43,966 bases of DNA from an uncultured Bacteroidales bacterium. Lineage in GTDB: Bacteria; Bacteroidota; Bacteroidia; Bacteroidales; UBA4417. The translations under genes and the position numbers were made by a program. The DNA lies in contig CALCJE010000148.1 in the NCBI GenBank assembly GCA_937965665.1, positions 1 through 43,966 of the forward strand, read 5' to 3'. Shown one piece after another: positions 1-37,630 of this stretch. The number at the start of each line of letters is the position of its first letter. The first letter of the stretch is position 1. The notes beneath the pieces were generated by a model. The model did no database searches. It was not told the DNA's origin and worked only from the letters and a program-made list of their open reading frames with translations.

Positions 1-53
1 CGGCATACGATTTGCCTAAGTGACTGGAGTTCAGACGTGTGCTCTTCCGATCT
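1..53. other. Illumina TruSeq indexed adapter sequence (library/assembly artefact)
   Basis: nt 20-53 read GTGACTGGAGTTCAGACGTGTGCTCTTCCGATCT. nt 1-19 read CGGCATACGAtttGCCTAA, which is the P7 tail CGGCATACGAGAT with two mismatches followed by GCCTAA, the reverse complement of TruSeq index TTAGGC. Confidence 0.9.
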
Positions 54-73
54 AGTATTATTCATTTCAACCG

Positions 74-961
74 TTGTACCAGGTTGATTTTCCAAAGCCA
101 CTTACAGCAAGACGAAAGTATTACCATGCCTTAATCGATAATGAAGCAACTCGGTATCTTAACGAATTTCACCAGGAGATGTTGGCAGCCTTGAATGATG
201 ATGAGAAAAAATACCTGGTTCATACCGCGCTCAACAAATTGCTTATTCAGAAGCTGAAGGAAACCTCCGCTGTTATTAATGAATACCAGTATTTCTTTAG
301 CAATGTTGCCGGACCTTCAAAATCTACAGGTAGCCCTAATATTGGTGATGATAGCTATTCACTGCAATTCCTCAAATATCAGCTAATCCGCATCTATCTC
401 GAAATCCAGTATTCATATATAGATTTTGTTAAAGCAGATTCCTTAACCGAGGGCGATATTCTGCAACTCTATTTTTCGGAATCAGCCCCCGATAAATCAT
501 TTATTCAAGAATCACCTAAAATCAAAATCCAGGGGCCTGAATTAAAACTTACTAAAAAATTATCGTCAAATCCATTCAATCCCAGGAAAGGTGATTTCAG
601 GCCAGAGAAGAAAGGAATCCTATCCTTCAAGACTATGATTAAAAACCCTGATCGTTTCCTCCGGTTTGAGGAAGAGCTTTTTGATCATGGTTTAATTAAC
701 GAAGATTATAATTTTTCTGACCGGCATACTCAAAAACAGGAATTAGCCGCTATTTATCAAACATTGATCAAGAAAGGCTATTTCCAGAAAAGGGATTTCC
801 AAAGGCTTAAAGACATTAAACATGTCGAAATCCGTAAATTCCTTGATTACAGATACAATGCTGATTTGGATAAACAATTTAGGTTTTGGGAAAATGATCC
901 TGATGGATTAGCAAATTATATACAAGATCGGTACTGGCTCGACAAATTACCAACATGCTAA
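74..961 (+). CDS. Hypothetical protein, probably 5'-truncated by the contig edge
   Basis: The frame is open back to nt 56, directly after the adapter. The listed start is TTG. No motif recognised. Confidence 0.5.
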   Translation: MYQVDFPKPLTARRKYYHALIDNEATRYLNEFHQEMLAALNDDEKKYLVHTALNKLLIQKLKETSAVINEYQYFFSNVAGPSKSTGSPNIGDDSYSLQFLKYQLIRIYLEIQYSYIDFVKADSLTEGDILQLYFSESAPDKSFIQESPKIKIQGPELKLTKKLSSNPFNPRKGDFRPEKKGILSFKTMIKNPDRFLRFEEELFDHGLINEDYNFSDRHTQKQELAAIYQTLIKKGYFQKRDFQRLKDIKHVEIRKFLDYRYNADLDKQFRFWENDPDGLANYIQDRYWLDKLPTC

Positions 962-1160
962 ATTGCGGTAATTTGCTGTCAATTTACCATTTCAAATTTC
1001 CACTATTTTTCTGAATCTCTTATCTGATAAGCCTTTTAAGCTTGTCCAAATTTCCATTTTCTAACTTCCAGAGCATAGTTGCCAAATTCGCAGAGTCTTC
1101 GACAATCGGAGATGACTTTTGGCCAGAAGTCCATTTTCTCAAATTAATACCATTAAGACA

Positions 1161-1460
1161 ATGGACGAAGTATTATTGCGTCTCGACAGAATTGAAAAGC
1201 TTATCCTTAACCAAAACCTGCTACAAAAGGATGTGCTTAACTTCAATGAAACCTGCGATTACCTTGAGCTATCGCACTCTCACCTTTACAAGCTCACGAG
1301 TACCGGAGCTATCTCTCATTACAAGCCGAACGGCAAGAAAATCTATTTCAAACGCTCCGAGTTGGACGAGTGGGTTCTTCGTAACCGTGCCGCCACCACA
1401 GAGGAAATAGAAACTCAGGTTTTTGATAACATTATGAAAAGCAGGAGGACCAGGTCATGA
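1161..1460 (+). CDS. Helix-turn-helix DNA-binding protein, excisionase/MerR-like (HTH_17-type)
   Basis: The segment NFNETCDYLELSHSHLYKLTSTGAISHYKPNGKKIYFKRSELDEWV fits the excisionase-family HTH pattern. I prefer ATG 1161 (MDEVLL) over the TTG at 1119. Its stop overlaps the next start as ATGA. Confidence 0.7.
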   Translation: MDEVLLRLDRIEKLILNQNLLQKDVLNFNETCDYLELSHSHLYKLTSTGAISHYKPNGKKIYFKRSELDEWVLRNRAATTEEIETQVFDNIMKSRRTRS

Positions 1461-1753
1461 TCGAAGTAATGGAATTATTAATGAACCTTTCTCGTGACTT
1501 CGGGATTGTAAAAACCTATGTGCTTTCTCTGCAAAGATCTAAACTGGATGATTTCAAAGATACCTGGATTGATGGTCAGGATGTGATGATGACTTTGCAT
1601 ATCAGCAAGCGCACACTTCAATCCCTGCGCGACGAGGGAACGCTGAATTTCAGCAGGATCAACGGAAAGTTCTATTACAAGGTTTCGGATATTGAATACC
1701 TTCTGGAATCACATTATTCAAAGAATAAACCTTCCGGCCATGGATCTGAATAG
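1457..1753 (+). CDS. Second helix-turn-helix DNA-binding protein (excisionase-like)
   Basis: The segment QDVMMTLHISKRTLQSLRDEGTLNFSRINGKFYYKVSDIEYLL is a paralogous HTH pattern. ATGA overlap with the upstream gene. Confidence 0.7.
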   Translation: MIEVMELLMNLSRDFGIVKTYVLSLQRSKLDDFKDTWIDGQDVMMTLHISKRTLQSLRDEGTLNFSRINGKFYYKVSDIEYLLESHYSKNKPSGHGSE

Positions 1754-2660
1754 AGATAACATCCTGCGCAAAACGCACTATGGTTTGAATATTTATTCCC
1801 ATGTGCTCCGTTACTATTATCCTGATGAGACAGTCCTTTCCTTATTCGGAAGGGACTGCCTTCCTGCTAAAAACCCTTTCAATGGGGATAAACCTACTTT
1901 GTTGGTTAAGGTTATTGACAATATTGCTATTCACTCTGATACCGAATTACCAGATTTTAAAGGTGATGCTTTCGATTTTGCCGCCTTGCACTTTAAAGTT
2001 CAAGATACAAAACTCTTTGAAAAGATAAACGAAGCCTGTTACCTCCGTTTAGGAGAGCTGCACCGCAGTCTTACTGGTAATTCATTTCCGGAATCATTCA
2101 TTAAACCGGAACCAACAATGAATAAGCTGCCAGTATTCAGTTATTTCAAAGCACCGGTCTCTAATATTGTCCCTTCCAAAAGCATTAGCATTCTTGATGC
2201 TTTCAAAATGATCAAAGGCGATATGTTTCTGAAAAACACTAAGAATCTTAGAAACCTCACTGACAAAATAGAAGCCAGGAAGTACAAAGCTGCTAACTTC
2301 GATTATGTCACTTTCTCGGGCACTTTTTCAGAACGAAATGATAAAGCGTTGAGAAAGCATTCCGGATTGATGGCAATAGATTTTGACCACATCCCGAATT
2401 TATCTGAACTTAAAAACAACCTCCTCAGTGATGAATATTTTGAAACTGAGATATTGTTTTATTCTCCTTCCGGCGATGGCCTTAAATGGATTATTCCAAT
2501 CGATCTGTCAAAAGCCTCTCACCCTGATTACTTCAAAGCCGTTGCAGCCTATATCCTCCAATGCTACCAGGTGAAAGTGGACCAATCAGGAAAGGATATT
2601 TCACGTGCCTGTTTCCTTCCTTATGATCCTGATGTGTATATCAATCCTAAATACTGGTAA
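1740..2660 (+). CDS. Primase-like protein (BT4734/VirE N-terminal-type primase-polymerase fold)
   Basis: LMAIDFDHI is an acidic DxD-type motif. Size and position upstream of a DUF3987 gene fit. Start chosen at MDLNRD (ATG 1740); the ORF track starts at 1692. Confidence 0.6.
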   Translation: MDLNRDNILRKTHYGLNIYSHVLRYYYPDETVLSLFGRDCLPAKNPFNGDKPTLLVKVIDNIAIHSDTELPDFKGDAFDFAALHFKVQDTKLFEKINEACYLRLGELHRSLTGNSFPESFIKPEPTMNKLPVFSYFKAPVSNIVPSKSISILDAFKMIKGDMFLKNTKNLRNLTDKIEARKYKAANFDYVTFSGTFSERNDKALRKHSGLMAIDFDHIPNLSELKNNLLSDEYFETEILFYSPSGDGLKWIIPIDLSKASHPDYFKAVAAYILQCYQVKVDQSGKDISRACFLPYDPDVYINPKYW

Positions 2661-2663
2661 GCT

Positions 2664-4478
2664 ATGGCTAAAAAAACATTCAATCCTTCCGATTGGCTGG
2701 ACCAGCAACCTAAGCTAAAACCAGCCGTAATAATTCCGGAAAATAAATCCGTTGATAGTGGAGACATTTCAGAAATAGAATCCATTATTCGTCAGATTGA
2801 AGAAAAGCAAATTGATATAGCTTCCGCTTACAGCGATTGGCGCGACATTGGCTTTGCCTTTGCTGATGCATTTGGCGAATCTGGCAGGGAGTATTTCCAC
2901 AGGATTAGTTGCTTTTATCCCGACTATTCTCCAGGTGAATGTGATAAGCAATACTCTAACTGCCTTAAATCACACGGTCAGGGAGTAACCCTCAAGACTT
3001 TCTTCTTTCATGCCAAACAATCCGGAATTTCTCTATCTGGCATCTCTAAATACACCCTTTCAAAGATAGATTTAGAGAATCAGGAAACACCATCAGAAGA
3101 GGACTGGGAAGGCCAACCAACTCTCCCAGATTCTCTGTTTACTCAACTTCCTGACTTCCTCAAACGTGTTGTATCTGTGGCTGATTCCAATGAAGAACGT
3201 GATATTTTATTGCTTGGTTCAATTGTCGCCTTGAGTGCCTGTTTCCCTAAAATCTTTGGCATATATGACGGTAAAAAGGTCTACTCAAATTTGTTCCTCT
3301 TTATCATTGCCCAGGCTTCAGCCGGGAAAGGACGTCTGGTCCATTGCAAGCAATTGGTTAAACCAATCCACAAGTTTTTACGTGATCAGGCAAGATTGCT
3401 GAAGCAGCAGTACGAAATAGACATGGCCGATTATATCGACCGGAAAGGCAAAGATGCTGATGCTGAAAAGCCTGGGAAACCTCCCGAGAAAATGTTATTT
3501 ATCCCTGCCAATAATAGCACTACCGGAGTTTTCCAATTATTGTTTGATAATGATGGCAGTGGGCTAATCTTCGAGACCGAAGGCGACACCCTGGCACAAG
3601 CATTCAAAAGTGATTATGGCAATTACAGTGATGGTTTCCGCAAGGCATTCCATCATGAAACTATCTCATATTATCGTCGCACGGATCGCGAATATGTGGA
3701 TATGGATAGTCCCCGCCTTTCCGCGGTGCTTTCCGGTACGCCGCGACAGGTTGCAAGTCTCATCCCGAATGCGGAAAACGGCCTTTTCAGCCGCTTCATT
3801 TTCTACTTCATGAACATCCGGCCAGTTTGGAAAAACGTTTTTGCGATAACCTCCGACAACGGTCTGGATGATTACTTCGATAACCTGGGAACCGAATTTT
3901 TCAGCCTTTACCAAACGCTGGCAAATGGTCCCGAAATCCAGTTCAACCTCATGGTTGAACAACAGGTAAAATTCAATGCCTTTTTTCAACAAACTCAGGA
4001 TGTGTATCTGAGTTTACAAGGTATCGACTACATGGCAACCATCAGGAGGCTTGGCTTAATTGCATTTCGCATTTCCATGGTCCTTTCTGCGCTTCGCATC
4101 ATGGAAACAGGCAACCTTCCAGAACGAATAGTTTGTGAGGACAATGATTTTCAGATTGCTCTTGAAATGATCACTATCCTGGTAAAACATGCCAGTAAGG
4201 TGTTCACTGAGCTTCCTGCCGAACCTCAGATGCCAAAACGGAAAAACCAGAAAGAAAAATACCTGGATTTACTACCGGCAAACTTTAATCGCCAGGACTA
4301 CCTCAGAATTGCAGCTTCAAGATCCATCCCTGATAAAACAGCCGAAGGTTATATTACCGAGTTTTACAAAAAAGGATTACTCCACCGCGAAAAGCAGGAT
4401 CTTTACATTAATCCGAATGCGAAATCCGGTAATACTCCAAACAAGGAAATTCAGGATTCTAAGGAAGTTAAGGATTAG
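2664..4478 (+). CDS. PriCT-2-like N-terminal domain fused to a DUF3987-type putative helicase/NTPase
   Basis: The N-terminal segment DWRDIGFAFADAFGESGREYFHRISCFYPDYS is PriCT-2-like. AQASAGKGR is a Walker-A-like loop. Follows the primase-like gene with a 3-nt gap. Confidence 0.65.
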   Translation: MAKKTFNPSDWLDQQPKLKPAVIIPENKSVDSGDISEIESIIRQIEEKQIDIASAYSDWRDIGFAFADAFGESGREYFHRISCFYPDYSPGECDKQYSNCLKSHGQGVTLKTFFFHAKQSGISLSGISKYTLSKIDLENQETPSEEDWEGQPTLPDSLFTQLPDFLKRVVSVADSNEERDILLLGSIVALSACFPKIFGIYDGKKVYSNLFLFIIAQASAGKGRLVHCKQLVKPIHKFLRDQARLLKQQYEIDMADYIDRKGKDADAEKPGKPPEKMLFIPANNSTTGVFQLLFDNDGSGLIFETEGDTLAQAFKSDYGNYSDGFRKAFHHETISYYRRTDREYVDMDSPRLSAVLSGTPRQVASLIPNAENGLFSRFIFYFMNIRPVWKNVFAITSDNGLDDYFDNLGTEFFSLYQTLANGPEIQFNLMVEQQVKFNAFFQQTQDVYLSLQGIDYMATIRRLGLIAFRISMVLSALRIMETGNLPERIVCEDNDFQIALEMITILVKHASKVFTELPAEPQMPKRKNQKEKYLDLLPANFNRQDYLRIAASRSIPDKTAEGYITEFYKKGLLHREKQDLYINPNAKSGNTPNKEIQDSKEVKD

Positions 4479-4546
4479 TATCCTTGACTTCCTGAATTTC
4501 CTTAAAATCCTCATTCATCTAATTCCCGCCAATATGCTTTTTTGAT

Positions 4547-4645
4547 AGTAATTTTTGACAGTAATCTCTGATTTTGTCTAAAATTACTATTGGCTAATTC
4601 AAGATGTTCGCTTACATTTGTCTGTAGTGAACAAATGTGTAGAAC
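4547..4645. promoter_or_regulatory. Two long imperfect palindromes in the intergenic region upstream of the pAgo gene (terminator of the backbone operon and/or operator)
   Basis: AGTAATTTTTGACA (4547-4560) pairs with TGTCTAAAATTACT (4575-4588) with 1 mismatch. GTTCGCTTACATTTGT (4606-4621) pairs imperfectly with ACAAATGTGTAGAAC (4631-4645). Confidence 0.4.
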
Positions 4646-4755
4646 CCCTTTTCTTTCAATACACACGCTTTATCTACTGATATAATTTTTCATTCAAAGA
4701 AGACAATGCCAAACATCTAGCTTCAATATTTTGATAACAATTAAAATAGCTTTTT

Positions 4756-6825
4756 ATGCCAGATCAAAATCTATTTTTCAACATACTCACTTTCGATTGG
4801 CCAAAGGAGAAACTTATATTTTATTTCAGCAAAAACGACGACAGGTCTTCTTCACGTATCCATAAATCTAATTTCCCAATTGACATATCTTCAATATTCC
4901 CTGATATTTATTCAGAGAATATTGAATTTGTTTATACCACATTCACCTATAAAAAAGCTGGTTTCATCCCCTTAGAAATTGATGCCCGTAATGAAAATCC
5001 GGATCTGATTAAACAGTATTACAACCGGGAGATTAATTATTACTTCAGGAAGGTTATTAAGTTAATAGTAAAAAGAGGTTTTATCGGTGAGAATCAGATT
5101 TGGACATACTCCAAAAAGGTGACTAATAGCACTTATCATTTTTATGAAAGATTTTCCTTCAAGGTTCAGCTCTGTACAGTTAGTCAATTCCCCGAACTGC
5201 TTATTTCTTACGATGGTAGATCAAGGGTTTTAAAATCTCCGGTTTCTCAGCTTGTTAAGTCAGTCTCTCAATCAACATTTATTAACGTTGTTTACAAAGG
5301 AAGAGTCCTCAATTTCGAAGATCTGGTCAATGAGATTGATCTTGATTATTCAAAAGCATATCCAATTCTTAATACAAAGCTTGAAAACGCATTAGGTGTC
5401 GAAGCAGAACCGATTCCAAAAAGCAATCGTTACATATCATATTTCGGAAAAGTTGATGAAATGCGAAAATACTTGCATTCAAAATCTGATTTCAAAAAGT
5501 TAATACCTCTGAACGATGTAAATTTTTATTCAGTTCCGGAAGATTTGATTTCTAAAATAAATGATGAGAGTAACAATTTAGCATTCCATGAAAAAGAAAT
5601 AGGCAGAACCCCCAAAATAGACTTCCGAAAACTAAAGCCATTTAAAAAATGTCCGCATCAGAATGTTCACCTTTTCTTCATTTATCATGAAAATGATGAG
5701 GCTACTAAAGATAAGCTTCAAGATTATTTCGAAAATGGTACATCCTTTTATAGAGGATTAACGGAATATGCTGGGATACTTTTCCACACCGACAAATCAT
5801 CTTCAATTTCATTCAGTGATAAGTTAAACCCGATTCCTGAGATTAGCCAGGGAATTGAACGACTCGATTTAAGTAATCCCGAAATCAAATACCTGGCAAT
5901 TTATCTTACCCCTTATACTAAAGCAGAAACAAGCAAGCAAGAGGTCCGCATTTATATAAAAGTGAAAGAAATGCTCTTGAATCGTGGTATTGCTTCTCAA
6001 TTCGTAGAACCGGCCAACGTGAATGGAGAAAAAGAAAACGATTTTGTATTCAGCCTTACTAATATGTCAGTCGCTATTCTTGCCAAACTTGATGGCATAC
6101 CCTGGCAACTTGGTTCTGATTTTAAAAATGAATTAATTATTGGGATTGGTGCATTTAGGCATTACGCTGATCAGGTTCAATATGTAAGCAGTGCAATCAG
6201 TTTCGATAATACAGGCCGCTTTCACCAATTTGAATACTTCATGAAACATCAAGTGGATGTTTTGGCTGGTTCCATTGCAACAAAAGTTCGTGAGTTTACT
6301 GCAAGCGTCAAACCACCGGATAGAATTATCATTCACTTTTATAAACAGCTAAGTGAAAAAGAACTTGCTCCGATCGAAAAGGCTTTGTTGGAATTAAAAC
6401 TTCCTAATCCTGTACCTATCTTCATAGTCACAATCAATAAAACAGAAGCTAAAGATATTTTTGTTTACGATGCTTCCTGGAAGCATCTTATGCCTATAAG
6501 CGGTACTTATATCAGTATTGGTAATAAGAAATATGTATTGTGCAACAACGCCCGTTACAACAATTTCTACAACCCTAAAGATGGTTTCCCTTTTCCGGTT
6601 AAACTTTCAATTGATTGCACCGAACCTCAACTACTCGAAAATGATGAAACAATAAATGAACTGATCAATCAGGTTTATCAATTTAGTCGTTTGTACTTTA
6701 AGAGTGTCATGCAACAAAATTTGCCTGTCACCATCAAATACCCGGAAATGATCGCAGAAATAGTCCCTTACTTTGAAGTAAATGGAATACCTCCGCAAAG
6801 TAAAAGTAACCTCTGGTTCTTATAA
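4756..6825 (+). CDS. Prokaryotic Argonaute (pAgo): N/L1/reduced-PAZ/L2/MID/PIWI layout, catalytically inactive PIWI (long-B-like)
   Basis: PIWI signature AILAKLDGIPWQL (GIPWQL at 6094-6111) is followed by LIIGIGAF, where Gly (6148-6150) sits where active Agos have the first catalytic Asp (GxDV). The RDG-equivalent segment reads IIIHFYKQ (6325-6348), with no Asp. MID-like Y-x-K...Q pattern in RIYIKVKEMLLNRGIASQF (about 5941-6003). Hydrophobic C-terminus ...NLWFL as in Ago proteins. Only about 60 aa is available for a PAZ-equivalent. Confidence 0.8.
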   Translation: MPDQNLFFNILTFDWPKEKLIFYFSKNDDRSSSRIHKSNFPIDISSIFPDIYSENIEFVYTTFTYKKAGFIPLEIDARNENPDLIKQYYNREINYYFRKVIKLIVKRGFIGENQIWTYSKKVTNSTYHFYERFSFKVQLCTVSQFPELLISYDGRSRVLKSPVSQLVKSVSQSTFINVVYKGRVLNFEDLVNEIDLDYSKAYPILNTKLENALGVEAEPIPKSNRYISYFGKVDEMRKYLHSKSDFKKLIPLNDVNFYSVPEDLISKINDESNNLAFHEKEIGRTPKIDFRKLKPFKKCPHQNVHLFFIYHENDEATKDKLQDYFENGTSFYRGLTEYAGILFHTDKSSSISFSDKLNPIPEISQGIERLDLSNPEIKYLAIYLTPYTKAETSKQEVRIYIKVKEMLLNRGIASQFVEPANVNGEKENDFVFSLTNMSVAILAKLDGIPWQLGSDFKNELIIGIGAFRHYADQVQYVSSAISFDNTGRFHQFEYFMKHQVDVLAGSIATKVREFTASVKPPDRIIIHFYKQLSEKELAPIEKALLELKLPNPVPIFIVTINKTEAKDIFVYDASWKHLMPISGTYISIGNKKYVLCNNARYNNFYNPKDGFPFPVKLSIDCTEPQLLENDETINELINQVYQFSRLYFKSVMQQNLPVTIKYPEMIAEIVPYFEVNGIPPQSKSNLWFL

Positions 6826-6852
6826 TCTTCACATCTTTTAAACCCGGGTATT

Positions 6853-7347
6853 ATGTGCGCTCAATGGAATAACAAAGACGTTCCGCACAAAGGCTGGATT
6901 TTAGTCGATGTGATCGATGTAAGAGAGGATGGCCAGCCAGCTGATGAAACGGATTACGAAAAATGCATGATGTGCGGTAACGAGAAAATTCGATACGTGC
7001 ATATTGTTGAACATAAGGATTTGGATGGTGAATACCGCGTCGGTTGCATTTGCGCCGAAAAAATGACGGAAGATTACATTAATCCCAGGGAACGCGAAAA
7101 AGAACTAAAACGCAAAAGTAATGAGCGTATCAGTTGGGTTAAGAAAAAATGGAAAACTTCTAAGTCTGGCAATATATTTCTAAATATTGATGGAAACAAT
7201 TTAGTCGTTTATAATGATAAGATCACTGGTAAATACAAATGCAAACTAAACGACAAATTCGGCTCTATTACCTACAATGATCTTAGTGCCGCCAAAATCG
7301 GCCTTTTCAAAAAGATGGAAGAGTTAAAGCAAAAGGGGAAATGGTAG
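6853..7347 (+). CDS. Uncharacterised four-Cys zinc-ribbon protein, co-operonic with the pAgo
   Basis: 28-nt gap after the pAgo stop, same strand. CMMCGNEKIRYVHIVEHKDLDGEYRVGCICAEKM gives a CxxC...CxC arrangement. It is followed by a Lys/Arg/Glu-rich helix (REREKELKRKSNERISWVKKKWK) and a small C-terminal domain. No family recognised. Confidence 0.7.
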   Translation: MCAQWNNKDVPHKGWILVDVIDVREDGQPADETDYEKCMMCGNEKIRYVHIVEHKDLDGEYRVGCICAEKMTEDYINPREREKELKRKSNERISWVKKKWKTSKSGNIFLNIDGNNLVVYNDKITGKYKCKLNDKFGSITYNDLSAAKIGLFKKMEELKQKGKW

Positions 7348-7382
7348 AAATATCCTATTTATGACTAAGGTTTAAAAAGTAA

Positions 7383-10300
7383 TTACGCTCCCTCCACAAT
7401 CCCTATTTCCTCCTCCGTCAACCCATACAACTCATACACCATCCGGTCTATTTCCTTATCCGTTTTATCGATTTCAGATTTTAATTCCAAGACAATTTGC
7501 TTTTGCTCGTTAAAATAATGCATCCATTCGACTTCAGAAGATAGACTCAGTTGTACTCTAGCCTTTTTAAGTTCGTTTAAAAAATCTTTAAAATCTAGCT
7601 CATCCCAATTTAAAATATTATTGCTTGGCTTTTCAATATCAAATTTATTCCGAAATAAATTTGTGAAATCTGATATTATAGTTTGCGATTGATTAGTCTG
7701 AGTAACTATTTTTTGAACTTTTTGTATAACTTTCTCAATTATTTCTTTCGAAGCTAGTTTGATTGGAAGTTTTCTTATATCACCTATAAGTATCTTAGGA
7801 AATGTTGTTCGATTACCTTTTGGAGATGTCTTTAAATTGAACCATGAAATCAGTTTAGAATTAATAATTGCTAAAAGATATTCACTTCCGATTTCGGTAA
7901 TATTTAAACAAGAAATTATACCAGGATCATGGTATAAAGTGCCATCATAAATTGTTGCTGTTATTCTGGGTGGATGCCCACCAGTTATTTCTTGTATCAA
8001 GATTCTTTTCCCATTAAAATATTTGGATTTTCTTGGCCGGTGTAACCACTCTCCATATTTTAAATACTCATGAACTGAAATATCAATACCATAACGATTA
8101 AGCGATCTTCCTTGAATCCAAATTCCCCATTCGTCACTAATTTTTGTATCATTATGATAAATTCTACTTTTAACCTGATCCTTTGAAAGATTTTCTGTTG
8201 AATAAGGAACGATTCCTTGGCATACATCTAAAAATGATGAGCCCAACTCTGCATTTGTAGATATTTTAGAAATGATAGAAATATCAATTTCATTCTGCCA
8301 GACTTGAAATTGCTTGTCATTCGACTTTGTCCAATTTGCTATCAAAGCTTCTTCAGCATCTATAGATTCTATTGAAAGTTCTTTACTCTTTGTATCAATG
8401 TGCAATATTTTACATTTTTCGACAAAAGCATTCTTCCCTAAAATGAATAATATTGGATTAACGCTTGCATCATCAAAAACTGAATGTTCAAAAGTTACAA
8501 TAGTGTTAATACCATAATTACTAAGAACATGTTCTCTTAATTTTTGCGCTTGAGGAATATTTATCCATGTATCAGGTGTTATATAGCCTGCTTTACCCTT
8601 ATGCTTAGCTAAAACATTTAACAGCTCAATAAAGAAAAAGTATATCTCAAAGTTGCCTTGAAATGTACTCATATGACTTTGATAATATTCTTTTGAAAGT
8701 GCATCTAAATATGCACCGTACGGCGGATTCCCAATTACCACATCAAATCCCCCTTTTTCAAATACAGTTGGAAATTCAGCCTGCCAGTTAAATGCTTTAT
8801 CACCTGCCACAGCCGGATCGTCAATCAGCGAGTTGCCGCACTTGATATTGTTGTTTAAATCGTTCAGCTTGCGGTTAGGTTGGGCAGTACGCAACCAAAG
8901 GGAGAGTTTGGCTATCTCAACACTCTCCTCATTTAAATCAACTCCAAACAGGTTGTTTTCGAGTATATTCTTTTCAAAATCGCTCAGCACCAAAGCATCG
9001 CCAAAAAGCTTGGCCTGTAATTCGTCGATATAGCGGTGCTCGTTTATCAGGAAGTCGAGCGCCTGGTTAAGGAAAGCTCCCGAGCCGCAGGCCGGGTCGC
9101 AAATGGTAAGTTGCAAAAGCCAGTCGCGGTATGCGGTAAGTTTTTCAAATAAAGGCTGAATGGTTTTCTTTGTACGTTTCCGGTCGGTGATATACTCTTC
9201 CTCAATCAGTCCGATTTTTGCTTTTTTCTCCATGCAGAGCTTGCCAACGGTGTTATCAACAATATACTTTGTAATGTATTTCGGAGTATAAAAAACACCA
9301 TCCTTTTTACGCTTGCTTTTCGATTTGTCAACCTGCTGCCCTTCGAGCTGCGCTTTTATTTCATCCAGTTCGTTCAGAGAGTTTTCGAAAATATGGCCCA
9401 GGATATTCACATCCACTTCGCTGGCAAAGTCATACTCCGAAAGCTTCAGCGTATGCCTGTATAGTAGTTCATCATCAATTTTTAGCCCATCCAGCAGTTC
9501 ATCCGTTTTAAACAACCCACCGTTATACGCGAATACATCGTATCGTTTCCCTTTAAAGCCGGTATTGAGATATTCAAAATACTTTTTAAACCTGGCATAC
9601 AGGGCTATTTCCACATCTCTGTTTAACAACTCGCGCCAATCGTCCAGTATAAGTCTCACCGAATTAGGTGGTAGCAATTGCCTATCCTCTGCAAAAAAGA
9701 GAAACAGGAACCGGTCCAGCAGCTTTTGCGATTTTTTAAAGAGCGTCAACGGGTCATGATCCGGATTGAGTATAACCAGGTTCTGATGCAGTTCCCTTTT
9801 AAACAGCGAATAATCGTTATACAGGTTTTTCGTAATTACGTCTTCCTGGCTTACCGATTCATCTTTTATTCGCTTTGCAAGATTTTTCTCAATATTTACA
9901 AATGCCAGGCATAACCACAGCAGTTCAAACTCTTTCTCACTAAGCGTAAACAGGTTGAACTCAATATTCTCAATGGCGTTATCAATATAAAAACGCAGCT
10001 TCTCAAAATTGGAAGTGATCACATACACACATTCCGGCTGGTTGTTCTTATAGCCGAAAGCCTGGGCTTCAATACGGTTTAAGTCGGTGGTTTCAGTTCC
10101 TTTGAGTTCTATAACCGCCTTTACCACACCATTGATCAGTATGGCTCCATCGGCTTTTTTACTGTCCTTTACATTTTTGTATTCGGTAGTAATATTGAAA
10201 TTTGGTGCCGGGTTCTTGGTATAGCCCAGCACATTAACAAACAGATCGATCAGGAACTCGCCCTGGTATTGTTCTTCCTTGCTGTTGCGAATGTTTTCCT

Positions 10301-10412
10301 GCACCTCAGGATCATGAAAACGAGCTACGAATTTGGCGTATGCAGTTTTTATAGCAGCGGAATCCTGCGTTTTTAGGTGTTTATTAAGAACTGAATTTTG
10401 AAAGAATTTCAT
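7383..10412 (-). CDS. Type IIG (single-chain) restriction endonuclease / N6-adenine DNA methyltransferase with C-terminal specificity region
   Basis: N-terminal PD-(D/E)xK-like motif ADGAI...AVIELKG (D at 10149-10151, ELK at 10101-10109). SAM motif I DPACGSGAF (9072-9098). Catalytic motif IV NPPYG (8715-8729). The 1009-aa size and layout match MmeI/Eco57I-like enzymes. Confidence 0.8.
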   Translation of the reverse strand: MKFFQNSVLNKHLKTQDSAAIKTAYAKFVARFHDPEVQENIRNSKEEQYQGEFLIDLFVNVLGYTKNPAPNFNITTEYKNVKDSKKADGAILINGVVKAVIELKGTETTDLNRIEAQAFGYKNNQPECVYVITSNFEKLRFYIDNAIENIEFNLFTLSEKEFELLWLCLAFVNIEKNLAKRIKDESVSQEDVITKNLYNDYSLFKRELHQNLVILNPDHDPLTLFKKSQKLLDRFLFLFFAEDRQLLPPNSVRLILDDWRELLNRDVEIALYARFKKYFEYLNTGFKGKRYDVFAYNGGLFKTDELLDGLKIDDELLYRHTLKLSEYDFASEVDVNILGHIFENSLNELDEIKAQLEGQQVDKSKSKRKKDGVFYTPKYITKYIVDNTVGKLCMEKKAKIGLIEEEYITDRKRTKKTIQPLFEKLTAYRDWLLQLTICDPACGSGAFLNQALDFLINEHRYIDELQAKLFGDALVLSDFEKNILENNLFGVDLNEESVEIAKLSLWLRTAQPNRKLNDLNNNIKCGNSLIDDPAVAGDKAFNWQAEFPTVFEKGGFDVVIGNPPYGAYLDALSKEYYQSHMSTFQGNFEIYFFFIELLNVLAKHKGKAGYITPDTWINIPQAQKLREHVLSNYGINTIVTFEHSVFDDASVNPILFILGKNAFVEKCKILHIDTKSKELSIESIDAEEALIANWTKSNDKQFQVWQNEIDISIISKISTNAELGSSFLDVCQGIVPYSTENLSKDQVKSRIYHNDTKISDEWGIWIQGRSLNRYGIDISVHEYLKYGEWLHRPRKSKYFNGKRILIQEITGGHPPRITATIYDGTLYHDPGIISCLNITEIGSEYLLAIINSKLISWFNLKTSPKGNRTTFPKILIGDIRKLPIKLASKEIIEKVIQKVQKIVTQTNQSQTIISDFTNLFRNKFDIEKPSNNILNWDELDFKDFLNELKKARVQLSLSSEVEWMHYFNEQKQIVLELKSEIDKTDKEIDRMVYELYGLTEEEIGIVEGA

Positions 10413-10463
10413 CCGGATAAATAATAAGCTAAATAAGAAACGAACAGAATTGGTAAATCACAA

Positions 10464-10471
10464 CAAATATA
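10464..10471 (-). promoter_or_regulatory. Candidate Bacteroidota -7 promoter box (TATATTTG) for the type IIG gene
   Basis: The minus strand reads TATATTTG, matching TAnnTTTG, about 52 nt upstream of the ATG at 10412. Confidence 0.4.
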
Positions 10472-10647
10472 AGATAGTTCTCTATAAAGACATTCTTTCC
10501 TTACCACATAAACGATAAACAATGACGAGTTTCAGACTTGCTCTTTTTGTCTGAATATTTCAGACCTTCATGCTCAGCCATACATTGTAAGTTTGCCAAT
10601 TGGAAAATGAAATTAAATATCTCTTTTGCAGGTTACCAAAATGCTTT

Positions 10648-11802
10648 CTAAAAATTCAATTTCAAATGCAGATAGATCAGGTTTGCTGTATCCTTTTTTC
10701 CTTTCACCAGTTGGCCTGCAAAAGTTTGGGTGATAACTGAAAATTCAAGATTTTCGAGTATCGAATAACTAAGTGTCGGCCCGATATAATATCCATTGAG
10801 TTTAGGGAAATACATGCCTGCCAGCGTTACATTAAACAATGGAGTTACCGGGTAGCTTCCCTGTAGCATAATGGAAATGCCTGGAAATGAAAGATTTTTG
10901 GCTGATAAATTCGTCATAAAATACTCACCAAAATTTTTTATTTCGCCGCTTTTCACAGGGTTGTACAGCACCTCAGTCTGCAGCATAAATGAGTTTTTAA
11001 ACGAATACTGGCTACCTAACGAAAAAATAAGTAAGCCTGTAGTATCAGCAAAGTTCTTTTTAGGATGGAAATAAGATACTTCGCCGTTAAACGATGCCGT
11101 AAAAATATTACCTGACCATCCGGCCCCGAGCACTAAATCATCATCATTCAGTATTCCGCCCATAAATTGGATATCATAATTCCACCTGTTGAAACGATAC
11201 AGCAAAGCGGAAGTTATTCGGCTTGCGCTGTCAGCTTTCATTACAAAATCAAACGTGGAGGTGCTGTTCCTGTAATATTGCAGCCTAAAAGCATCGCTTC
11301 CGGGTTTTTCAATGTAATCGAAATCGAAATACGAATAGGCATTAAAAATATCGTTGGGATTCCATACAAAACACTGTCCCCAGTTAATACGTTGCCGCCC
11401 TAGCCTCAGTTGAAATTTATCTTTTGTGTAATCAACATACAGCCTGTCGATCCTGAAATTAAGTAAATACGATTTTCCGCTTGCGATATTGAATGAAAGA
11501 TCTGCCAATCCATTATCAGATCCAATAATGTTCGCGTAGCCCGGTACTGTGCTTACCGTTTCGCCCACTAGCAACCTGTTGCGAAGTTCCAAAGCACCAT
11601 TCAAAGTATTTGCAGTGTTATTCCATTTAAAATTCAGCCGGTTGTGAAGCACATTATCTACTGTTGGATTATTAACAGAGCTCTGATAAACAAACGATTG
11701 CATATCGGTAACGTAACCGTTCAGCGTCAAATTATGCTGTATTGTATCCTGGCTAAAACTTGAAACAGGAATCAGAAGAAGTACATATACTAACCATTTC
11801 AT
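10648..11802 (-). CDS. Outer-membrane beta-barrel protein (last gene of the ABC export operon)
   Basis: Signal peptide MKWLVYVLLLIPVSSFSQ. Alternating beta-strand-like composition. C-terminal ...LHLKLNF with a terminal Phe. Start at MKWLV (11802) is preferred over 11829 because the upstream gene ends at 11807. Confidence 0.65.
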   Translation of the reverse strand: MKWLVYVLLLIPVSSFSQDTIQHNLTLNGYVTDMQSFVYQSSVNNPTVDNVLHNRLNFKWNNTANTLNGALELRNRLLVGETVSTVPGYANIIGSDNGLADLSFNIASGKSYLLNFRIDRLYVDYTKDKFQLRLGRQRINWGQCFVWNPNDIFNAYSYFDFDYIEKPGSDAFRLQYYRNSTSTFDFVMKADSASRITSALLYRFNRWNYDIQFMGGILNDDDLVLGAGWSGNIFTASFNGEVSYFHPKKNFADTTGLLIFSLGSQYSFKNSFMLQTEVLYNPVKSGEIKNFGEYFMTNLSAKNLSFPGISIMLQGSYPVTPLFNVTLAGMYFPKLNGYYIGPTLSYSILENLEFSVITQTFAGQLVKGKKDTANLIYLHLKLNF

Positions 11803-11806
11803 CCGC

Positions 11807-12490
11807 TTATTTCCAAATATCCGAAACAACTTTACCGTCCTCTATGGTAATGATTCGTTTTGCTTTATTCACCACTCTTTGGTCATGTGTTGAAAATACA
11901 AATGTTACATTTTCGTCCCGGTTTAGTTTTTCCATTATATCGAGCAAATTTTCGGTCGACTTCGAATCAAGATTAGCAGTAGGTTCATCAGCCAGTATGA
12001 ATTTAGGTTTCGAAGCCAGGGCCCTTGCAACTGCAACTCTTTGCTGCTGTCCGCCAGATAATTTATTCGGTCGGCTGTCCATCCGGTCACCCAATCCAAC
12101 GGCTGTAAGCAGTTCAGTTGTCCTTGCTTGCATCTCTTTCTCCGATTTGCCCTGTAGCTGCATAATAAATTCAACATTTTCTCGGGCTGTGAAAACCGGG
12201 ATAAGGTTATAAGCCTGGAAAACAAATCCGATTTTTCTCATTCGGAAATCAGTTTTCTGCTTGCTGTTCAATGTATTGATCCGAACTCCGTCAATAATCA
12301 CTTCGCCTTCGGTAGGGTCGTCGAGCCCGCCCACAATATTGAGCAAGGTAGTTTTGCCTGAACCGGAAGGACCAACAATTGCGGTAAACTCCCCCGTATC
12401 AATTTTCATATCGATGCCATTAATTGCATACACAGGCAAAGCATTCCCATCGTAAACCTTGTGTAGACCTCTTATTTCAATGATGCTCAT
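11807..12490 (-). CDS. ABC transporter ATP-binding protein (LolD/MacB-type)
   Basis: Walker A GPSGSGKTT, signature LSGGQQQRVAVARAL, Walker B FILADEPT. Confidence 0.9.
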   Translation of the reverse strand: MSIIEIRGLHKVYDGNALPVYAINGIDMKIDTGEFTAIVGPSGSGKTTLLNIVGGLDDPTEGEVIIDGVRINTLNSKQKTDFRMRKIGFVFQAYNLIPVFTARENVEFIMQLQGKSEKEMQARTTELLTAVGLGDRMDSRPNKLSGGQQQRVAVARALASKPKFILADEPTANLDSKSTENLLDIMEKLNRDENVTFVFSTHDQRVVNKAKRIITIEDGKVVSDIWK

Positions 12491-12515
12491 ATTCGGTTTA
12501 TTATGATCAGTTTTT

Positions 12516-13730
12516 TTAACTCCGGATAGATTCCGAAGGATTAAGTTTTAAGGCCTTATAAGCCGGGTATAAGGACGATAACAATCCCGCAATTATCACC
12601 ATTAAAGCTGTAACAATCATGGTTTTGGAATCGATAACAGGGTAGATATGGGTTGAATATCCCAATTCAGCAAAAGCGTCTTTCCATGCATACAGGTTAA
12701 TCCCAACCTTTCCAAGATATTCTGATATCACATAGCCTATGATAATCCCCAAAACACCACCCGTAAGCGAAAGATAAATGGTTTCGAGCATTATCATCAT
12801 GAAAACCCTTGTCCTGTTCATGCCAATAGCCATTAACATTCCCAGTTCATGCACTCGTTCCAGAATTACCATAAGCATGGTGTTAACTATGCCAAAACTT
12901 AGTGCAAGCAGTATGATAACCAGGAACATGAACATATACTGATTCATGGCACTAACAAGGTAGCCGGCTTCTGGACTAAGTTGCAGCCAATCCTTTATTT
13001 CAAGTTTCGGCAAAAATCCTGAGAGAATTTTTGCGACAACTTCAGCGTCATTATTGTTACTAAGTATAACTGCAATTTCATGTGCAGTTTTTCCATCAAG
13101 ACCGGTAAGCAGGCATAAATCGGTGTTTCGTACAAAAATATTGGCTTCATCAAACATCTGGTTATCGGTGCGAAAAATGCCAACTATGCGAAAAGCCCCT
13201 CCTGTAATGTTATTATTTACATCCTGCACAGTAACAATAATTTTGTTTTTTAGCCCCACTTTTAATTTCTTAGCCAGGTGCTCACTTATAATGACCGGGT
13301 TTTTACCTGTTTCGTCGAGGTATTTCCCCTCAAAAATTTTAGAACTGATCTGGGTGACTTTTTTTTCATCTTCAGGATTAATGCCTGTAATTTTCACACC
13401 GGTTCCTGTTTCGGCAGAGGCTATCATACAATTGATTATCACCCTTTTGCTTGCTGCCGAGACACCCGGAACAGTTTTTACTTTTTTCAGAATACTGTCA
13501 GCATTATTTATCTGAAGCGAAAACTGGTTGTTTTCGAGGAAACCAGGCTGATGGATCTGAATATGCGACATTTCGGTGCCTATAATCGACTGAATGCGTG
13601 CATCAAGCATGCCATTCATAAATGAAATAAGAAATATGCCCGAAAAAATGCCAAGCGTAACTGCCCCGATTATTACTGAACTCCGGAGTTTGTTGCGCCA
13701 CATATTTCGCCAGGCAAATGTTGAAATCAT
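12516..13730 (-). CDS. ABC transporter permease, FtsX/MacB-like with large periplasmic domain
   Basis: Topology of one N-terminal TM, a ~230-aa soluble domain and three C-terminal TMs. Paralogue of the adjacent permease. Confidence 0.8.
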   Translation of the reverse strand: MISTFAWRNMWRNKLRSSVIIGAVTLGIFSGIFLISFMNGMLDARIQSIIGTEMSHIQIHQPGFLENNQFSLQINNADSILKKVKTVPGVSAASKRVIINCMIASAETGTGVKITGINPEDEKKVTQISSKIFEGKYLDETGKNPVIISEHLAKKLKVGLKNKIIVTVQDVNNNITGGAFRIVGIFRTDNQMFDEANIFVRNTDLCLLTGLDGKTAHEIAVILSNNNDAEVVAKILSGFLPKLEIKDWLQLSPEAGYLVSAMNQYMFMFLVIILLALSFGIVNTMLMVILERVHELGMLMAIGMNRTRVFMMIMLETIYLSLTGGVLGIIIGYVISEYLGKVGINLYAWKDAFAELGYSTHIYPVIDSKTMIVTALMVIIAGLLSSLYPAYKALKLNPSESIRS

Positions 13731-13747
13731 AAATGATGATTTTAGTA

Positions 13748-14965
13748 TTAACTATGTAAAGCTTTACTTATCTTGAGCTTGTGAATATTTACAACAGGAT
13801 AAAGCCCTATGATGACAGTGAAAATAAAAATCGTAATGGCCTGGTTGTAGAACACCGAAGGCGTCATCGAAAACGACATGATAGGTTCAAATCCCATCTG
13901 CATCATGGTTTCGGCTGCCTGTCCGGAGAAAGGTATCGGGTGCAATGTAAAATACCAGGTTATTGGTATGCTTGCTACTATGCCTGTAATAACCCCTACC
14001 AGGCCAAGTAAAATTGTTTCCTGGACAAGCACAAAACTCAATCTGTTTTTTTGCATTCCAAAGGCAATCAGTACGCCAAATTCTTTTCGCCTTTCGGCGG
14101 TCATCATCATAACGGTGCCAAAAATCCCAAAAGCAATTATCATGTAAAGCACGCCTTTCATGATGATTCCCGACTGCCGGTCACTGTCAATCTGTTTCAT
14201 CAGGATGCTGTTGATTTGTTTCCAATCCATAACTTCATATTCCGGACCGAGTTTCGAAATCAGTTCCTTTTTTGCAGATGCAACGTCTTCGCTATTTTTA
14301 ACCATAATTACGATGGAGGTAAGCCTGTCACTGGCTGAAAAAAGGTCCTGGCTAGCGGTAACATCCATATAAACTACAATCCGGTCGAGATCGGGTGAGG
14401 GTTGTTTGATAATTCCACGTACCGGGTATTTGCCTGCAGCACTTACCCCTTGATACCCCTGACCCAGAAGCACAAGCGTATCGCTCACTCCCAGGTTAAG
14501 AAATTTTGCCAGCGCACTCCCAAGCACTACACCTTTGTCGCCGTCGTAAAGGTATTTCCCATTTATTATCTTCCCCGATAATCCTGTTATTCGATCTTCC
14601 TTTTGAGGCGATATTCCTATAACCATTACGCCTTTGGTAATATCTTCCGAAGCGGCCAGTGCAAAGTTTTCGAGACGGGGGGTGAAAATAGTTATCTCTT
14701 TTATATCTTTAAGTTTGGTACTGATGGCACTGTATTCCAGCGAGTTGTTGATTTCCTGATTGTTCCAATAGCCTTTCTGATGTACCTGGATATAACCTGA
14801 ATAAAAGTTGACAATGGTCTTGATATACTGGGCATATGAGCCTTCCTGCATTGAACTCATTATGGCTGATAAAACAACCCCAAAGAAAATGGATGCTGAG
14901 GTAATAAGCGTTCTTTGTTTGTTACGCCATAAATTTCTCCAGGCAAGTTTTAAGTATACCTTCAT
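13748..14965 (-). CDS. ABC transporter permease, FtsX/MacB-like
   Basis: Same topology. N-terminal LAWRNLWRNKQRT is typical of FtsX-family permeases. Confidence 0.8.
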   Translation of the reverse strand: MKVYLKLAWRNLWRNKQRTLITSASIFFGVVLSAIMSSMQEGSYAQYIKTIVNFYSGYIQVHQKGYWNNQEINNSLEYSAISTKLKDIKEITIFTPRLENFALAASEDITKGVMVIGISPQKEDRITGLSGKIINGKYLYDGDKGVVLGSALAKFLNLGVSDTLVLLGQGYQGVSAAGKYPVRGIIKQPSPDLDRIVVYMDVTASQDLFSASDRLTSIVIMVKNSEDVASAKKELISKLGPEYEVMDWKQINSILMKQIDSDRQSGIIMKGVLYMIIAFGIFGTVMMMTAERRKEFGVLIAFGMQKNRLSFVLVQETILLGLVGVITGIVASIPITWYFTLHPIPFSGQAAETMMQMGFEPIMSFSMTPSVFYNQAITIFIFTVIIGLYPVVNIHKLKISKALHS

Positions 14966-14981
14966 TGAAATTTAACCTTAA

Positions 14982-15743
14982 TCATTTAATGCTTTTCATA
15001 TTTTGCTGCGAGAAGAAGCTATCTGCAATAGGCAGGTTGAAAACACTGCTGTTGATCTCAAGTATTGTTTTATTACCTTTTTTGTTTACTGGCTCAATCT
15101 CCATTCGTGTTGGGATTTCGCGGTCTCCCGTTTTTTTGATATTGTATGCATTCATCAGGTTAACAAGTTCCTGGTCTTCATCGTAATATTCTGCTTTCCA
15201 TTGGTTGAAACCATTCACTGTTATCCATGTAATTACTTTTCCCCAGGTTACTGCGGCATCGGGCAAAGGAGTAAGTTCAACTTTATAACATTCCATTCCC
15301 CGAACTGTTTCTTTGCCAAGTAACTTCTGGGTATAATCCACCACAATGGAGGATTCCTTCACAAGATCGTCATTGGTAAAATCGGAACCCATCCACGACT
15401 GCATCATCATCGAAGGAGGTATTTTTATCATTCTTTCTATGGATGGAACCCAGTTCCACATGTCTTTTTGGCGTTTCAGAAAAACCTGTCCTTTTTCCTT
15501 TGCAGGAGCTGTAATATAAATAAGTGAATATTCTGTACCCTTGGACCATGATTTCATGGTAACACTTCGGCTCCAGTCAGGACGAACAATTGTTAGCGTC
15601 ATTGTTCCCTGGCTAGTTAAGCCACGTCCTTTGTCATCAGCTTTTTTAATAATCTCCCTTGCGGTTAGTTCCTGCGCAAATGATTTATATCCAGTACCTA
15701 TTAAAATCAAAAAGCATCCTGTCAAAACTAATTTTATCTTCAT
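14982..15743 (-). CDS. LolA-like outer-membrane lipoprotein-sorting / carrier protein
   Basis: Signal peptide MKIKLVLTGCFLILIGTGYKSFAQ (start at ATG 15743, not 15842). About 250 aa, beta-rich. Sits in an operon with the FtsX/ABC genes. Confidence 0.6.
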   Translation of the reverse strand: MKIKLVLTGCFLILIGTGYKSFAQELTAREIIKKADDKGRGLTSQGTMTLTIVRPDWSRSVTMKSWSKGTEYSLIYITAPAKEKGQVFLKRQKDMWNWVPSIERMIKIPPSMMMQSWMGSDFTNDDLVKESSIVVDYTQKLLGKETVRGMECYKVELTPLPDAAVTWGKVITWITVNGFNQWKAEYYDEDQELVNLMNAYNIKKTGDREIPTRMEIEPVNKKGNKTILEINSSVFNLPIADSFFSQQNMKSIK

Positions 15744-15910
15744 CACTTTCAGTTTTATGTAAAGATAATGTAATTGTAATTCAGGTATTCTAAAAGAAAG
15801 TAATAATAAGTCAATATCAATTTTCAATAATTCATACTCCAATCTTAAATCAGATATATCTACTCAAAATTGTCATGTAATTGTTTTTGTGTAATTTACA
15901 TATAATCAAT

Positions 15911-37618: not shown

Positions 37619-37630
37619 TTTGATTTTCAG

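Follow-up and report, generated by a model that had tools for sequence, protein, structure and literature searches.

A widespread family of small proteins at the ends of DNA-targeting defence operons neither co-occurs consistently nor co-evolves with a neighbouring prokaryotic Argonaute

Where an inactive prokaryotic Argonaute (pAgo) of the long-B group is closely followed by a small gene in the same orientation, the question arises whether the small gene encodes the partner of the pAgo. Such a pair is present in contig CALCJE010000148.1 of an uncultured Bacteroidales bacterium, a metagenomic contig of 43,966 bp that is below called the window. The original prediction, made from the sequence alone, proposed that the 164-aa product of the downstream gene is the only candidate partner of the pAgo and possibly an HNH-like nuclease. 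The comparisons presented here gave a different answer. The small gene neither co-occurs consistently nor co-evolves with pAgo, but is a mobile, self-contained unit, usually the terminal gene of DNA-targeting defence operons. With about even confidence we regard its product as an autonomous, non-enzymatic accessory of defence islands and mobile elements that is associated with nucleic acids or helicases and is not a pAgo subunit.

The gene claimed by the original prediction is real. The open reading frame (ORF; ATG at 6853, stop codon at 7345–7347, 164 aa) shares its start codon and length with its homologues. A search of 5.8 billion clustered proteins found 478 homologous clusters at 90% identity (E ≤ 1e-3). 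The best 120 of these were 51–90% identical to the window protein and nearly all 160–174 aa long, and the named clusters among them were called "hypothetical". When 1.84 billion representatives at 50% identity were searched with a profile, 1,946 matched with E ≤ 1e-3, including 1,195 with E ≤ 1e-10. Because the family is this large and highly conserved, a chance ORF is excluded. Its members are nearly all stand-alone proteins of about 160 aa.

No described family was found to include the protein. It did not match any Pfam (E ≤ 0.1), NCBIfam or PADLOC (E ≤ 0.1) model, nor, at the last threshold, any PADLOC model of a known pAgo-associated protein. PHROGs gave just two sub-threshold matches, both to families of unknown function, and sequence and profile searches of the PDB with the family returned nothing below E = 0.27. 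Searches of the literature on DUF3987 with Argonaute, on DUF1508 and on defence-island zinc fingers and PcrA found no description of the family. The protein is thus uncharacterised, as had been predicted, and the family is new, no described family or fold matching it; the newness is limited to the family, the type of locus being known.

The partnership was examined in both directions. The forward scan of one genome per species (GTDB) yielded 74 loci with a family member, mostly from Bacteroidota but also from Pseudomonadota (Sheuella, Lysobacterales, Magnetococcales, Fontimonas) and Bacillota (Blautia, Lachnospiraceae, Thomasclavelia and others). For the comparison loci, genes were predicted simply by picking the longest ORFs and were named after cluster representatives, the counts being approximate and the defence tallies lower bounds. 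A pAgo homologue was directly upstream of the small gene in nine of the 74 loci, and two of these nine were fragments, one at a contig edge (L023) and the other a 57-codon remnant (L004). The remaining 65 loci had no pAgo. The reverse scan, made of metagenomes with an alignment of eight pAgos of the clade, produced 80 loci with pAgos 34–54% identical to that of the window, 72 of which included at least 600 bp of downstream sequence. A family member was present near the pAgo in only two of the 72, downstream at a distance of 585 bp in L161 and upstream in L184, and the other 70 loci had no small gene.

The sequences of the two proteins did not co-vary either. The identities of the small protein and the pAgo to their window counterparts were 83% and 37% in L002, 72% and 34% in L005, 52% and 32% in L022, 54% and 33% in L034, and 46% and 50% in L057, respectively. 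Family members adjacent to type I restriction-modification (RM) genes were 58–62% identical to the window protein and thereby as close to it as the pAgo-adjacent ones, and in a neighbour-joining tree of the family the pAgo-linked members were placed in at least four separate positions. At the DNA level, conservation among the window and L001–L005 extends from the last pAgo codons across the short spacer and through the small gene, with the body of the pAgo replaced. In L004 the small gene is intact (L004:10001-10498), and the pAgo upstream (L004:9575-9973) is reduced to its last approximately 57 codons (...NLWFL) and unrelated sequence. In L034 (L034:10001-10495) the small gene has an in-frame stop at the otherwise invariant W100 beside an intact 731-aa pAgo, being either a pseudogene or an assembly error. 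One Bacteroidota bin (JBAXBJ01) has the arrangement of Bro-N, pAgo and small gene twice, on different contigs (L002 and L005).

A dedicated partner of pAgo is rejected on four grounds: the neighbourhoods scanned in both directions, identities that do not co-vary, the loss of the pAgo in L004 and the stop in L034. In a further lineage, P0120 (Ferruginibacter), the order is HigB, M78, pAgo, a 74-aa gene and the small gene, and the adjacency to pAgos is therefore recurrent. The small gene adjoins pAgos in at least five separate lineages, which is far above chance expectation. This adjacency is an instance of a wider link to defence operons, the family being also found in RM, CBASS (cyclic oligonucleotide-based antiphage signalling system), plasmid and phage contexts. 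The family is thus largely unrelated to pAgo loci, which is in essence the outcome that the original prediction had named as refuting it. Neither is the protein the only candidate partner, as AgaPP, AgaPH and the integrase have been reported as conserved, co-evolving companions of this group of pAgos (PMC11724360). The idea that the small gene belongs to the conserved backbone of the AgaPP element, as an anchor behind which DUF3987 and inserted cargo would lie upstream, was also considered and rejected: a DUF3987 homologue was within 10 kb in only nine of the 74 loci, and neither flank is constant.

The gene upstream of the small gene was co-directional in 52 of 65 loci, and in 35 of these 52 the gap was at most 40 bp; the small gene is therefore typically the last gene of the preceding operon. 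The Pfam families detected upstream were Methylase_S (9), Eco57I (8), N6_Mtase (7), Piwi (7), Peptidase_M78 (5) and HNH_5 (4). The small gene was within, or ended, type I RM operons (hsdR–hsdM–hsdS) in approximately 11–14 of the 65 loci, with a gap of 9–12 bp, and these loci often also held YhcG or an ABC-type ATPase. An M78/IrrE peptidase and a 229-aa protein preceded it in 5–7 loci, and other upstream partners included type IIG, MmeI and ISP enzymes and HNH_5 proteins. The downstream neighbours were YhcG nucleases (8), SMC_N ATPases (6), integrases (5) and IIG/MmeI RM enzymes (4). A complete Septu PtuA/PtuB pair and a IIG RM enzyme were also found downstream and, in another lineage, an Mrr-type nuclease. 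A labelled RM, pAgo, YhcG, M78 or AbiLi-like gene was present within four genes in at least 30 of the 65 loci, a raw count and a lower bound.

The small gene was also found on 44 plasmid records, 32 of them conjugative; among the records are IncC-type plasmids from Aeromonas and E. coli as well as many from Rhizobiaceae. On pTi_CFBP2516 (NZ_KY000047.1; L186:4793-9471) it comes right after a CBASS operon of patatin, CD-NTase and Cap2 (ThiF/E1-E2), within a defence-rich region. In type II CBASS the slot after Cap2 is usually occupied by the Cap3 JAB protease. On a Rhizobium tropici plasmid the small gene follows a gene annotated as an XRE-family regulator. Nearby are HipA and two paired genes with AAA ATPase and UvrD-like helicase annotations, in a Gabija-like layout.

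Fourteen IMG/VR phage contigs and four GenBank phages carried the small gene as well. It was directly after a primase/helicase in L086, between the primase and the helicase with overlapping stop and start codons in L087, before a helicase in L081, and after a DNA polymerase exonuclease subunit in L083. In the temperate Agrobacterium phage Rivra it was close to the integrase. Among the best 150 representatives at 50% identity, P0198, P0210, P0222, P0233 and P0268 were C-terminal fusions to PcrA/UvrD (UvrD or PcrA-tudor Pfam matches), in which the whole unit of about 160 aa follows the Tudor domain through a long, low-complexity linker rich in K and E. Two further fusions, P0219 and P0256, had a tudor-like motif recognized by eye. 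The fusion proteins are probably from Bacillota, and one fusion gene (L191:499-2694) was in an ordinary-looking, non-defence neighbourhood.

The AlphaFold2 (AF2) model of the 164-aa protein, built from an alignment of 30 sequences, had a mean predicted local distance difference test (pLDDT) score of 86 and included three parts. The N-terminal domain has a strand (16–22), a CxxC knuckle (C38/C41), a hairpin (48–53/60–63) and a helix (65–72) starting at C65/C67. It is followed by a long basic helix (76–97) and by a C-terminal domain of four strands (108–141) and a helix (144–161). The core, CMMCGNEKIRYVHIVEHKDLDGEYRVGCICAEKM, comprises residues 38–71 and includes four Cys and two His (C38, C41, C65, C67, H50 and H54), and the basic string KELKRKSNERISWVKKKWK comprises residues 83–101; both had been quoted exactly in the original prediction. 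Outside the core the protein has C2, C130 and H12. Segment 76–104 has an isoelectric point of 10.75 in the window protein. Over 78 diverse members the mean net charge was -5.8 in the N-terminal domain, +7.7 in the helix and +2.8 in the C-terminal domain, and this pattern is conserved. In P0166 the C-terminal domain is duplicated.

Only P11, W15, C38, C41 and C67 were invariant in the 78 members. H54 was present in 77, R47 in 75, D22 in 73, H50 in 73 (otherwise F or Y) and C65 in 66. The topology of knuckle, hairpin and helix in the AF2 models would fit a structural zinc finger of the treble-clef/GATA-like or C2HC kind, and the most economical reading of the conservation would be one structural zinc site formed by C38, C41, H54 and C67. 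The zinc-stabilised, nucleic-acid-binding character proposed in the original prediction was retained as plausible. At E ≤ 1, weak Pfam matches were obtained in the 78 members to SAND_ULT1 (plant ULTRAPETALA1; five members, best E 9.4e-4), to a GATA-like finger (KDM6_GATAL; three), to OapC (three) and also to ADD_DNMT3. Foldseek searches of the PDB with the full and the N-domain models found no SAND, GATA or C2H2 fold. A classical C2H2 finger (C-x2-C-x8-H-x3-H; PDB match with E 0.49) is unlikely, as both His are on a strand in the model and H50 is replaceable. The model of the N-domain alone (pLDDT 79) had no fold match in the PDB, in a search with a method that is insensitive for zinc modules of 40–70 residues.

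An HNH or His-Me nuclease was rejected. The family shares with such nucleases that have a structural zinc the CxxC knuckle, the His-bearing beta hairpin and the Cys at the start of a helix. Unlike them, it has neither a conserved Asn, be it between the strands or in the helix, nor a second metal ligand, and five of the 78 members have F or Y in place of H50. By its conservation H54 belongs with C38, C41 and C67, the best-kept residues of the core, which is consistent with a structural site, and it is more likely a zinc ligand. The window protein had no match to HNH Pfam profiles at E ≤ 0.1, and the 78 members included one weak match to HNHc_6 (E 0.022). Profile searches against PDB sequences did not return any nuclease. 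The Foldseek check for the beta-beta-alpha-metal fold, made with the models of pLDDT 86 and 79, gave no match with E < 0.2 and no nuclease among the top 50, the method being weak on small motifs.

For the full model, Foldseek found nothing with E < 0.02 in the PDB or BFVD, the best values being 0.28 and 0.02, respectively. The best PDB matches covered the C-terminal domain: the integron cassette protein 3imo, PUR-alpha and PC4/Sub1 (E ≥ 0.28). DUF1508/YegP (UPF0339) was considered for this domain on the basis of the 2k7i profile (E = 0.27), but the hhalign probability against E. coli YegP was 0.3%, and DUF1508 was absent among the 25 of 40 Pfam families listed at E ≤ 1 for the 78 members. DUF1508/PC4/Whirly-type modules have been described as putative single-stranded-nucleic-acid sensors in the Menshen and Shedu defence proteins (PMC12065111). 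The C-terminal domain resembles the PC4/Whirly/PUR and DUF1508 modules of that study in having four strands and a helix, in being basic and, in P0166, duplicated, and in occurring in defence contexts. It differs from them in that the similarity is just a hint (Foldseek E ≥ 0.28, hidden Markov model E = 0.27, hhalign 0.3%) and the protein is a stand-alone one with an extra, putatively zinc-binding domain.

The pAgo upstream (689 aa) matches the PADLOC pAgo model over its full length, and its closest PDB relatives are the inactive AfAgo and RsAgo. It is without the first catalytic Asp, IGIGAF replacing GxDV, and this is invariant in eight relatives. GIGA in the place where active Argonautes have GxDV makes it an inactive long-B pAgo, in agreement with the original prediction. 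A long-B subclade linked to VirE_N proteins has been listed by Song et al. (PMC10620215). The relatives of the window pAgo (L105–L184) had no common downstream gene. DUF3987 and VirE_N genes were upstream in 14 and 10 of these loci, respectively, and HsdR-like proteins were also recurrent. A hidden partner was sought among the downstream genes, of which two recurrent ones resembled, by eye, AraC-like and Fur-like regulators and are probably unrelated. Such neighbours fit the resistance-nodulation-division (RND) efflux neighbourhood noted by Ryazansky et al. (PMC6299218). No effector candidate for this long-B pAgo clade emerged from the neighbourhoods of L105–L184.

In the window (Table 1), the small gene is preceded by genes for DUF6617, two HTH_17 proteins, a primase-polymerase, a PriCT-2 and DUF3987 protein, and the pAgo, from which it is separated by a spacer of 27 bp. 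The terminator-like hairpin is a strong one, with a 14-bp stem, and overlaps the end of the DUF3987 gene. The promoter-like site ahead of the pAgo matches a sigma-70-like consensus at 11 of 12 positions, the consensus not modelling Bacteroidota promoters. The hairpin and this site split the replication module from the unit of pAgo and small gene. With the 27-bp gap and these two signals upstream of the pAgo, the two genes would seem to be transcribed as one unit, and this appearance explains the partner interpretation of the original prediction. On the other side, the stop codons of the small gene and the convergent type IIG RM gene are 35 bp apart.

Table 1. Features of the small gene and its surroundings in the window
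Feature	Coordinates	Strand	Basis
164-aa protein, unnamed widespread family	6853..7347	+	ORF, homologue clusters, AF2 model
N-terminal acidic domain, putatively zinc-binding (residues 1–75)	6853..7077	+	AF2 models, charge over 78 members
Putative zinc ligands C38 (6964-6966), C41 (6973-6975), H54 (7012-7014), C67 (7051-7053)	6964..7053	+	Conservation
Less conserved core residues H50 (7000-7002), C65 (7045-7047)	within 6964..7053	+	Conservation
Long basic helix and linker (residues 76–104)	7078..7164	+	AF2 helix 76–97
C-terminal four-strand and helix domain (residues 105–164)	7165..7344	+	AF2 strands 108–141, helix 144–161
DUF6617 protein and two HTH_17 proteins, same mobile element	74..1753	+	Pfam
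Replication module of mobile element	1692..4478	+	Pfam; fits the AgaPP–AgaPH module of PMC11724360
BT4734/VirE_N-type primase-polymerase	1692-2660	+	Pfam PF08800
PriCT-2 and DUF3987 helicase	2664-4478	+	Pfam PF08707 and PF13148
Terminator-like hairpin (4462-4493) and promoter-like site (4555-4584)	4462..4584	+	Consensus scan; Bacteroidota promoters unmodelled by the tool
Inactive long-B pAgo, upstream neighbour	4756..6825	+	PADLOC PDLC02385 (2.3e-242), Pfam Piwi
Type IIG RM enzyme, convergent with the small gene	7383..10412	-	Pfam Eco57I, N6_Mtase, TaqI_C; PADLOC REase_MTase_IIG (3.5e-298)

The Pfam matches show that the element is of the AgaPP type, with a VirE_N/BT4734 primase-polymerase, a PriCT-DUF3987 protein and an inactive long-B pAgo downstream. 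It seems to end just past the IIG RM gene (window 10412–10648). From 10648 on, the ORF translations, judged by themselves, resemble chromosomal genes (outer-membrane-like, ABC ATPase, permease-like). No integrase was seen in window positions 1–16000, and the sole tRNA of the window (Arg, 37630–37704) is far from the element. The closest relative of the window is L001, from an uncultured Sphingobacterium genome bin, with a pAgo 94% and a small protein 90% identical to those of the window. There the convergent downstream gene (L001:9027-9641) encodes an NYN-domain protein in place of the type IIG RM enzyme, and the right flank therefore differs even in the nearest relative.

The locus and the protein can be compared with several known systems. 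In the BPAN, BPAS and BPAM systems (Song et al. 2023, PMC10620215), too, a co-oriented gene directly follows an inactive long-B pAgo in an operon-like arrangement. Of the associated proteins, bAgaN is a nuclease, bAgaS a SIR2 NADase and bAgaM a membrane protein, and they co-evolve with and are confined to their own pAgo subclades (PMC10620215). The 164-aa protein differs from them in having no effector domain, in not co-varying with the pAgo and in being mostly found without one. The backbone of the window, its helix-turn-helix (HTH) genes and its defence cargo are those of the AgaPP–AgaPH–long-B pAgo elements (Fu et al. [quoted passage not shown] In comparison to these elements, the small gene is one of the variable genes and is not described in that study, and, as stated, the integrase was not seen in window positions 1–16000.

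Another parallel is with the accessory genes that type I RM loci may contain, for example YhcG/DUF1016 and PrrC/RloC, given the presence of the small gene in or at the end of hsd operons. The 164-aa protein is, however, unrelated to them in sequence, has no nuclease or ATPase domain, and is also found behind pAgo, IIG RM and CBASS.

Taken as an accessory protein, the product of the small gene would not be an enzyme, given the lack of enzyme family matches and of a catalytic constellation. A single structural zinc ion would hold the small acidic beta-sheet domain, most likely through C38, C41, H54 and C67, and the basic helix (76–104) together with the basic C-terminal domain would bind nucleic acid, the likely ligand being single-stranded DNA or another product of a helicase or translocase. 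The protein may act as a dimer, and read-through transcription of the preceding operon would provide for its expression. As its conservation far exceeds that of the adjacent defence genes, the protein probably acts by way of some conserved partner or substrate in DNA processing and not through contacts with the variable defence proteins. Its general role could be that of a sensor, a modulator or a means of self-protection in DNA-targeting immunity and in the DNA transactions of mobile elements.

Several points weigh against this reading. Nucleic-acid binding was deduced from charge and from weak hints of fold (Foldseek 0.28 and 0.02; YegP hhalign 0.3%), the zinc and its ligand set from conservation, and the helicase theme from a few phage contigs and the fusions. 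The neighbour counts are approximate lower bounds. In addition, the adjacency to pAgo is tight and repeated in the lineages mentioned, with a clean two-gene unit in the clade of the window, so that pAgo may be one of several DNA-targeting hosts to which the gene has a facultative functional link.

The alternative that the gene encodes a dedicated effector or partner of the inactive long-B pAgo, like bAgaN, bAgaS or bAgaM, switched on by guide-directed target binding and possibly HNH-like, we regard as the least probable of the explanations considered. Its layout is that of the BPAN, BPAS and BPAM operons, in which the associated gene comes directly after a leading pAgo (PMC10620215), and the gap is short not only in the window but also in L002, L022, L034 and L057 (10–31 bp). 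The pAgo is inactive, no other obvious effector is present in the window, and the order of CxxC, hairpin and CxC-helix resembles a zinc-bound beta-beta-alpha-metal topology. All this is opposed by the two scans and the identities, with 65 of 74 family loci lacking a pAgo and 70 of 72 pAgo loci lacking the gene, by the reversed order in L184, by the small gene outliving the deletion of the pAgo in L004 and by the stop beside an intact pAgo in L034. Neither Pfam, PDB profiles nor Foldseek gave an HNH signal, H50 is not invariant, and the PADLOC pAgo-associated models do not match. Hardly more probable is a role as a zinc-finger transcription factor, controlling either the operon that closes with the small gene or the module that follows. 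The zinc module with the basic helix, the weak recurrent GATA-like, zinc-ribbon and SAND_ULT1 Pfam matches (the last in 5/78, best E 9.4e-4) and the weak C2H2-like PDB match (E 0.49) would fit such a factor. Defence regulators such as C proteins, WYL/BrxR and CapH-CapP are, however, usually at the 5' end or divergently transcribed, and an identity of 50–60% across very different operons would be unexpected for a regulator. The PcrA fusion and the phage replication context fit poorly, and Foldseek did not return any of the corresponding folds.

A stand-alone, abortive-infection-like defence gene, whose product blocks invader replication by binding the phage helicase, single-stranded DNA-binding protein or a replication intermediate, is unlikely, although less so than the two preceding explanations. 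Many loci have defence genes on both flanks, the gene lies in accessory regions of plasmids and integrative elements, and in the temperate phage it is beside the integrase, in a typical accessory (moron) position. The protein has, however, no toxic or enzymatic domain, and no PADLOC model exists for the family. The gene is usually without intergenic space of its own (35 of 52 gaps of at most 40 bp), and it is also found inside phage replication modules and fused to a seemingly ordinary PcrA. An establishment or anti-defence factor, which would temper its own system in the manner of restriction alleviation during establishment in a new host, or counter the defences of the recipient, appears improbable, more so than a stand-alone defence gene. 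Its occurrence on conjugative plasmids, integrative elements and phages would agree with this, and so would N6-adenine-methyltransferase-based RM systems as its most frequent hosts and a conservation much higher than that of the adjacent defence genes, as expected for a protein engaging conserved host machinery. On the other hand, the modules that the gene accompanies also include pAgo, CBASS, Septu and M78 ones, whose mechanisms are unrelated, no similarity to known anti-defence families was found in Pfam or PHROGs, and known anti-restriction genes are not normally last in RM operons.

For the biology of pAgos, an attractive candidate has turned out to be wrong, and the effector missing from the AgaPP-associated long-B pAgos is not this small gene; an abortive-infection action of these pAgos is already doubted in the literature. 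For the discovery of defence genes, it flags a large, strongly conserved and unannotated family. Tentatively, and as a possibility that we rate well below an even chance, the approximately 2,000 clusters at 50% identity from Bacteroidota, Pseudomonadota, Bacillota, plasmids and phages may represent an unrecognised general accessory of DNA-targeting immunity. This would be a zinc-stabilised binder of single-stranded DNA or helicase products that is co-transcribed behind type I and IIG RM, long-B pAgo and CBASS, performs a common service such as sensing replication intermediates or protecting self-DNA, and is tethered to PcrA in some Bacillota. The rider pattern, with the gene found in many operons, plasmids, phage modules and PcrA/UvrD fusions, suggests a DNA-intermediate or helicase step shared across immune systems and mobile elements, and this unusual distribution in defence islands and mobile elements makes the family worth modest experimental follow-up.

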